Origin: Eledone cirrhosa
Taxonomy: Eukaryota
Direction of reading: 5' to 3'
NCBI GenBank assembly: GCA_964016885.1
Contig: OZ024743.1
Coordinates: 117,986,001-118,050,000 of the forward strand
DNA length: 64,000 nt
Shown here: in pieces, positions 15,483 through 16,184 of the stretch
How the letters are laid out: each line of letters starts with the position of its first letter
Position numbering within the stretch: the stretch's first letter is position 1
Notes under the pieces: model-generated
Seen by the model: only the letters and a program-made list of their open reading frames with translations
Database searches by the model: none
What the model was told of the DNA's origin: nothing
Position numbers and translations under genes: made by a program

Positions 15483-16184
15483 AAGGAATTTATATCTAGT
15501 AACATTTATATACACACAGATGCATATCGATGCTAGCAAATATATAGGTTTTGTCTTATTAACAATGTGGTTCAATGCATGGGGTTGCAGAACAATAATA
15601 TGAGAGACGTAAAATAAGAAAATTATAAAATTAACTTACTTACTAAAAAATCACTTCCAACTAATTAGTTTCTGGAATGGAGTAAATATATTTTCCGAAG
15701 AAACATATACAAAATCATTCCGTCATCAGGAAAGTCTTTTTCCGTATAGGTCTCCAGGCATAGCGAGGACACTGGAAACTTATTAAAAAAATAATTCAGT
15801 GGAATGGAAATAGCGATGCGTGGACTGGAATCCAAGCCATTGAGAAAAATCACTGCCTCTACGTCTGTGGCAGATTCAAAAAGAATCAATCACGTGACAT
15901 CGAGGTCAATCAGTGGAAAGCGAGTGGTTATTAAGACAGCGGCCAGCTTACTACCATAGTAGCAGTCATGGCCAAATATTGCTCGACAAATGAATTGGAG
16001 ATAATTATAAGGAATTTATATCTAGTAACATTTATATACACACAGATGCATATCGATGCTAGCAAATATATAGGTTTTGTCTTATTAACAATGTGGTTCA
16101 ATGCATGGGGTTGCAGAACAATAATGTGAGAGACGTAAAATAAGAAAATTATAAAATTAACTTACTTACTAAAAAATCACTCTC
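15483..16184 (-). mobile_element. Non-coding HHR-bearing repeat (family B), 526-bp period, about 1.33 units, between (TA)n tracts
   Basis: 15483-15658 is repeated at 16009-16184; HHR lies inside; (TA)n on both sides. Confidence 0.85.
15653..15735 (-). ncRNA. Type I hammerhead ribozyme motif (family B)
   Basis: Minus strand: actttc CTGATGA c ggaatg..c ttcg g..cattcc a GAAA ctaattag TT ggaagt; 6-bp stem I, stem II capped by cUUCGg, palindromic stem III. Confidence 0.8.

Follow-up and report, generated by a model that had tools for sequence, protein, structure and literature searches.

The window and its family-B repeat

The stretch of DNA analysed here comprises 64,000 nucleotides and is referred to as the window throughout. 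At positions 15480-16188 it harbours a copy of a non-coding tandem repeat, designated family B, which is flanked by (TA)n at either side and followed by an older copy of the same family. RNA sense corresponds to the minus strand of the window, and unit positions are counted from the base directly after the predicted ribozyme cut, position 1 being window 15658 and its equivalent 16184. The following features were assigned:

15442..15483, no strand: TA run, the left-side (TA)n target
15480..15658, minus strand: 3'-terminal partial unit, positions 1-179, ending at the 'long' fixed reverse transcription (RT) start site
15480..15597, minus strand: 118-nt 'tail' between the short site (position 61, window 15598) and the long site (position 179)
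15653..15735, minus strand: predicted minimal type I hammerhead, cut 15659/15658 after GUU
15659..16181, minus strand: upstream unit, positions 4-526; on its 5' side the main arm breaks off at 16181, leaving 3 nt to the predicted cut
16180..16188, plus strand: CTCTCATAT, likely a very short second arm in inverted orientation that corresponds to positions 53-61 (the short start site), with a 2-nt (CT) microhomology joint
16185..16518, no strand: AT run, the right-side (AT)n target
16991..17831, minus strand: an older family member with 76% identity, starting at the long site, with an inverted piece at 17781-17831

The 526-nt period and the 1.33-unit layout given in the preliminary description were borne out, as 15480-15655 and 16006-16181 are identical except for one mismatch (15600 versus 16126); the copy contains a single complete predicted hammerhead, and its nucleotides 15480-15483 are common to the TA run and the long-end partial unit. 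The same description had placed the outer boundary exactly at the predicted cut. Position 16184 (15658 plus 526) is the final base ahead of the (AT)n, but the true repeat match ends at 16181, i.e., at unit position 4, and two of the last three bases are mismatched (15656 and 15657 versus 16182 and 16183); at the shift of 526, 15658 and 15659 match and from 15660 onward there is no match. The older copy reads through both predicted cut sites and continues for about 60 nt past the second one, where its inverted piece follows. The 526-nt unit is without ORF, no frame of at least 150 aa was found within the element, and the RT plus GIY-YIG reading frame that marks an autonomous Penelope-like element (PLE) is absent. 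Ahead of the long start site the tail is predicted to form a long stem-loop (16012-16075, unit positions ~110-173), which is kept in two subfamilies and is a candidate protein-binding site.

On the minus strand, the predicted hammerhead is composed of stem I (15735-15730 with 15658-15653, ACUUUC/GGAAGU), the core elements CUGAUGA (15729-15723) and GAAA (15672-15669), stem II (15721-15716 with 15679-15674, GGAAUG/CAUUCC), which is preceded by a bulged C, and the palindromic stem III ACUAAUUAGU (15669-15660), with an extra A at 15673 before the GAAA. An Rfam scan returned no family at gathering score. Across 237 complete copies from 145 elements, conservation amounts to 98.7% for the core, 99.3% for stem III and 89.7% for loop II, and these copies show the CUGANGA / GAAA / UH core with U or C at N7 and GUU as cut triplet. 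Compensatory pairs distinguish the subfamilies in stem II (G-C/A-U, 173/58; U-A/G-C, 198/32), and pair changes were likewise identified in stem I (U-G/C-G and U-A/U-G), the covariation of both stems representing two or three lineage events only. The G10.1-C11.1 pair is present, yet the extra A sits between C11.1 and G12 in 235 of the 237 copies; when an identical stem III lacking this extra A was searched for by pattern, four hits and no family were obtained. Stem III was computed to reach -9.0 kcal/mol as a dimer duplex and to form no hairpin on its own, and the predicted fold of the 526-nt monomer RNA (z=-4.3) is only compatible with expression as linear and circular monomer RNA. The hammerhead fold is thus well supported by conservation and compensatory changes, and the minus-strand cut placed earlier between 15659 and 15658 is a predicted one.

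A dispersed family with two fixed 3' ends

A 201-bp query yielded 1729 first-look candidates in the genome assembly used for comparison (3.0 Gb; coordinates with C1, C3 etc. belong to it), and family B has well over a thousand copies dispersed across many chromosomes. In the 30 best loci, the 3' ends locate to ~61 and ~179 and each enters (TA)n, while the 5' ends are variable and an inverted second arm is common. Exact patterns matched 608 long ends genome-wide, 224 and 384 for the respective spellings of two subfamilies, as well as 1091 short ends; the reversed-pattern controls gave 0 matches for either type. The two fixed 3' ends lie 61 and 179 nt past the cut, hence 118 nt apart, inside (TA)n, with TA microhomology of 4 nt at each start site. 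Loose ends made of (TA)n also occur in three contig sets from one outside sample, where they mark 15598 and 16006, the two start sites. With a fixed site primed in (TA)n at this number of exact ends, the earlier assumption that reverse transcription began at the TA target is likely to hold true.

Elements were sampled by anchoring on the 3' end only and in genome order, taking 90 of the 224 and 30 of the 384 long ends as well as 69 of the 1091 short ends (the redundant stretch L171 being left out of the latter), and 60 further long ends formed a replication set. Counting 11 elements reached from both ends once, 238 insertions with 381 arms were obtained, in which two locus pairs resembling segmental duplicates (L393/L394 and L408/L409) were retained and to which the window copy does not belong. 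An inverted second arm is present in 154 of the 238 copies, the remaining 84 having no second arm of detectable length. Family B combines the partial tandem with inverted 5'-truncated arm and the optional 3' tail from two start sites (61 and 179), both hallmarks of PLEs, with the non-coding tandem unit carrying one type I hammerhead per unit that characterizes retrozymes and is seen, e.g., in multi-unit copies. It was classified as a new non-autonomous Penelope-like/retrozyme family.

5' ends relative to the predicted cut

According to the preliminary description, the main arm had stopped at a self-cleaved 5' end of its template, the boundary serving as indirect evidence of in vivo cleavage, and random 5' ends in other copies, together with no RNA of about 520 nt being detected, were named as the observations that would speak against this. 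For the 238 insertions the 5' ends are scattered, so that this refuting expectation largely came true, and the boundary is not to be taken as evidence of in vivo cleavage. Ribozyme activity would otherwise have left a footprint of a kind rarely seen in genomes, an expectation that fails for the family.

Arms have a median length of 386 nt (longest 1715; 381 arms). Of these, 303 run across one predicted cut site or more, 81 across two or more and six across three or more, in line with the crossing of an intact junction that had been proposed for the window copy. Stops at the cut site make up 11 of 401 encounters, the other 390 (~97%) continuing. Against an expectation of exposure-weighted uniform stopping, positions -1 to +4 received 11 of 380 stops in the pooled data (5.9 expected, p=0.04) and 10 in the first set (4.4 expected, p=0.014), whereas no excess was found in the replication set (1 versus 1.5 expected). 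The counts for narrower and wider intervals were 4 versus 3.0 (positions 0 to 2) and 13 versus 8.9 (positions -2 to +6). A 1.7-fold excess that was replicated (13 versus 5.4) extends over positions 1-20, where 34 stops compare with 20.5 expected (p=0.003); it equals ~3-4% of the arms and, being present in both sets, fits some cleaved templates. This stretch is AT-rich and palindromes at positions 4-34 give fold-back junctions; the strongest 5'-end peak (positions 143-152) is located in an AT-rich stretch as well. Direct-TA junctions around the cut, matched by a genome-wide pattern, were inspected by eye, and among the first 100 of 207 matches listed (~35 loci) about 8 breaks fall at position 6, six at position 520 and about 7 at 525-2, so that breaks near the cut cluster at TA microhomology (positions 6 and 520) and not at position 1. 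Two sister loci stop at or beside the predicted cut, namely L060 and L156, the latter by both arms.

Arms of different type from one source

The 154 inverted elements comprise 141 that pair a long with a short end, two with two long ends (one of them weak), none with two short ends and 11 ending elsewhere. For copies anchored at position 179 the far end was found to be short in 73 of 83 cases and long in two. Of the 42 anchored at position 61, 41 have a long far end and none a short one, and in the replication set the far end was short in 38 of 40 and long in none. If sites were chosen independently, about half of the pairs would be expected to be of the same type, as opposed to the 141:2:0 observed. 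The far end is joined to TA in 98 of 103 elements, and the two arms share at least 30 unit positions in 82 of 103. Inversion junctions display a microhomology overlap in 71 of 114 cases and are fold-back-like in 11 of 114, with ~5 expected.

The young subfamily contains several haplotypes. At shared polymorphic sites, discordance was 22/493 (4.5%) within arms and 37/718 (5.0-5.6%) between the arms of an element, compared with 23% between elements, private differences being alike across these classes (1.4-1.9%). The low discordance within and between arms indicates that both arms derive from one source, that the units were alike at insertion and that no homogenisation has occurred since. Minor alleles, counted without the hypervariable positions 475-481, occupied every unit of the element in 82 cases and only some of its units in seven, sites within one element not being independent. 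As a new allele can reach all units only via a monomer that is multiplied anew, this would favour a circle or repeated template jumps. The same unit-to-unit difference in the same phase was identified at site 104 in three elements, pointing to some heterogeneous linear multimers rather than circles. A 4-nt deletion (positions 22-25) was considered as a further sign of heterogeneous multimers and dismissed, having no tie to unit position (15/232 versus 5/76) or haplotype. The long-short pairing suggests that copying of the RNA likely started at either side of a single DNA break.

In the window copy, the letters at 16180-16188 equal the short 3' end in opposite orientation. The match extends over 5 letters, two of which (CT) are shared with the main arm, while none of 48 other non-inverted direct-to-TA junctions matches the short end by at least 3 letters ahead of the run. 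Small short-type arms occur at sister loci (24 nt in L403, ~14 in L380 and ~9 in L427), and a junction near-identical to that of the window copy was found at C3:108755393. Three informative letters plus the register thus suggest that the terminal letters likely represent a 9-nt inverted second arm, to which the terminal GAG is best assigned as well.

Coding Penelope-like families and further repeats

A broken, 5'-truncated coding PLE resides in the window at 58346-60010 on the minus strand and starts at a (TA)n run. Its family, for which 32,507 first-look candidates were obtained in the assembly, possesses a long low-complexity N/S/T-rich insert between the RT thumb and the endonuclease side, a minimal hammerhead of its own and two fixed TA-joined ends. 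Of 22 loci picked by their RT region, 14 have both ends, 13 being long-short and one long-long as judged by eye; by the same kind of inspection, none of five near-full copies starts at the predicted cut.

The search for a coding partner covered a small part of the more than 30,000 first-look PLE candidates. In 92 loci selected for PLEs and in 30 loci of one candidate family, no terminal sequence common to family B and the coding PLEs was detected. The window PLE family, 12 more loci and 30 intact-ORF loci of other families gave only low-complexity matches or matches to neighbouring old family-B copies. L284 (78% over 140 nt) was rejected as partner, the tail being present in only one of 30 loci of its family and representing an adjacent insertion, and a 12-nt likeness of family B to the window PLE family did not exceed shuffles.

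Apart from this, many PLE copies with an intact 714-aa frame were encountered (L347-L364, e.g., C1:319428444-319430543), so this family is probably young and active; other PLE families have frames of 715, 719 and 758 aa. Inverted arms and two TA-joined end sites were also recorded for at least five additional hammerhead-bearing families (L283, L284, L285, L289, L291 and L370), their ends lying, e.g., 111/196, 106/196 and 98/187 nt from the core. For one coding retroelement in the assembly, the closest named relatives come from an octopod.

The window contains a second, unrelated hammerhead-bearing repeat family with two copies that are 77% alike and belong to the same TA-rich cluster (16520-16975 and 26912-27292); stem II looks canonical, stem III is palindromic and the site is GUA, with the core at 16884 on the minus and at 26984 on the plus strand. 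Further CUGAUGA motifs in repeated, partly inverted contexts (22492, 48910, 54256/54809/54891 and 60987/61116) are probably more hammerhead-bearing elements. A perfect 2.7-fold tandem of a 486-bp unit (6354-7647), inside which no CUGANGA core was found, is located between a LINE-like 1170-aa frame (2953-6465, minus strand) and (AT)n. The window additionally comprises a LINE-like element that is broken and retains frames for endonuclease and RT (8562-13843, plus strand), SINE-like repeats with a unit of ~200 bp (15040-15280 and 51443-51837) and a 20-bp minisatellite of 114 copies (24330-26600).

Proposed mechanism and alternative explanations

The window stretch is, with good though not full confidence, considered to be one insertion of a high-copy non-coding 526-nt hammerhead repeat that was moved by a PLE enzyme in trans through two-ended copying. 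The proposed mechanism assumes that the enzyme, probably as a dimer, would cut both strands of a (TA)n tract, whereupon reverse transcription would be primed at position 179 by one DNA end and at position 61 by the second. The RNA template would possess intact ribozyme junctions, being either a monomer circle that is traversed for more than one round or a multimer left uncut, and the two cDNAs would stop at variable lengths and subsequently be joined head to head via microhomology. For the window copy this would yield a long arm of ~699 nt and a short arm of 9 nt, the stop of the long arm near the cut being mostly due to chance plus local microhomology (CACT/CTCTC). The chances of the template having been a circle are judged to be even, and an uncut multimer is a serious candidate at somewhat below even chance. 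Of the circular or multimeric template proposed in the preliminary description, the circle or uncleaved multimer is likely, and the cleaved template end is unsupported for the family.

Alternatively, the template might have been a partly processed multimer or an opened circle, with RT running off its self-cleaved 5' end, in which case the boundaries would record in vivo cleavage. The fold conserved with compensatory changes, the window copy stopping 3 nt from the cut, the two sister loci at or next to it, the pooled excess at -1 to +4 and the replicated one at positions 1-20 are in line with this. Against it stand the 390 encounters passed without a stop, the exact interval that was not replicated, the near-expected count at positions 0 to 2, the direct-TA breaks gathering at TA microhomology, the palindromes that yield fold-backs and the near-full coding copies that all start elsewhere than at the predicted cut; moreover, in a lizard PLE, RNA reads ending at the hammerhead site were undetected (PMC11167929). 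As an overall reading this explanation is improbable, and run-off at a cleaved end is refuted as a general rule of the family, though cleaved ends may make a small contribution of a few percent of arms. For the window copy taken by itself a cleaved template end is doubtful, the proximity of its end to the predicted cut likely being in large part coincidence. In L1 twin priming, two primers from one break give rise to an inverted 5' part with a microhomology junction, and a classical event of this kind on one linear RNA, where the inversion results from chance annealing of the second DNA end upstream of the first cDNA, would account for the single source haplotype in both arms and for the frequent microhomology junctions. 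The second site in family B is fixed and not random, however, only 12 of 103 elements have a long arm ending close to that priming site, and the arms overlap extensively, although a tandem template could permit such an overlap, so that twin priming was given very little probability. Equally little was given to fold-back self-priming on an antisense template, as put forward for rotifer PLEs in PMC3846280, and to a 1.33-mer arising from local DNA duplication. The fold-back-like junctions exceed their expectation, as noted above, yet 103 of the 114 junctions are not fold-backs, neither process predicts two precise and different outer ends on (TA)n, and the copies lie dispersed on many chromosomes.

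Two-ended copying by a PLE enzyme, on the other hand, may tentatively be extended to PLEs in general. Their integration would then be intrinsically two-ended and asymmetric, a dimeric enzyme holding one, probably circular, RNA at two sites and each site extending one end of the break; the one-end tail and the inverted 5' arm of PLEs would result from one event, and the circles of retrozymes would be the substrate. This extension is somewhat less probable than not. The long-short rule bears on a question raised in PMC8557442, namely the origin of the tandem and inverted PLE structures and of one-sided tails. Together with the single source of both arms it constrains the mechanism and links a retrozyme-like repeat to PLE-type integration. 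It is near-absolute in two families (141:2:0 in the non-coding and 13:1:0 in the coding one) and predicts a simple result for the in vitro PLE system.

Comparison with known systems

Among open-access main texts, a literature search returned no description of family B or of a counted long-short rule. Minimal PLE hammerheads of low activity are described in PMC4209133, where circles had already been proposed as templates for more-than-unit copies. Animal retrozymes were reported to yield circular RNAs (PMC7229834), and a connection between retrozymes and pLTRs was drawn in bioRxiv 10.64898/2026.07.22.740005, in which one of nine dimers was cleaved in vitro. According to these two reports, animal non-LTR retrozymes resemble family B in being dispersed, non-coding and low in GC and in forming tandems whose units measure a few hundred bp and carry a type I hammerhead; they were proposed to be non-autonomous PLE derivatives that move through circular RNA. 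Family B differs from them by its 526-nt unit, by mostly comprising one to three units plus inverted arms instead of long arrays and by its strict targeting of (TA)n, its circular RNA and its cleavage being predictions.

The EN+ PLEs described in PMC8557442 and PMC3846280 possess a pLTR, an inverted 5'-truncated copy and an optional 'tail', the inverted arms being accompanied by a tail that is often found at one end only. Compared with these elements, family B is distinguished by the lack of an ORF, by a tail of 118 nt and not 30-40 nt, by a one-end rule that is near-absolute (141 versus 2) and by the extra invariant A between C11.1 and G12. The closest biochemical counterpart of the proposed two-ended copying is PAc (Poseidon from Anolis), whose protein, a predicted dimer, cuts and extends both DNA strands in vitro, with unprocessed RNA as the main substrate and no requirement for hammerhead cleavage (PMC11167929). 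Like in family B, two internal start sites define the tail and the targets are AT-rich; in PAc no difference in start site was seen between strands and no homology between start site and target (PMC11167929), whereas an insertion of family B starts from a different site at each of its ends, TA microhomology of 4 nt being present at both.
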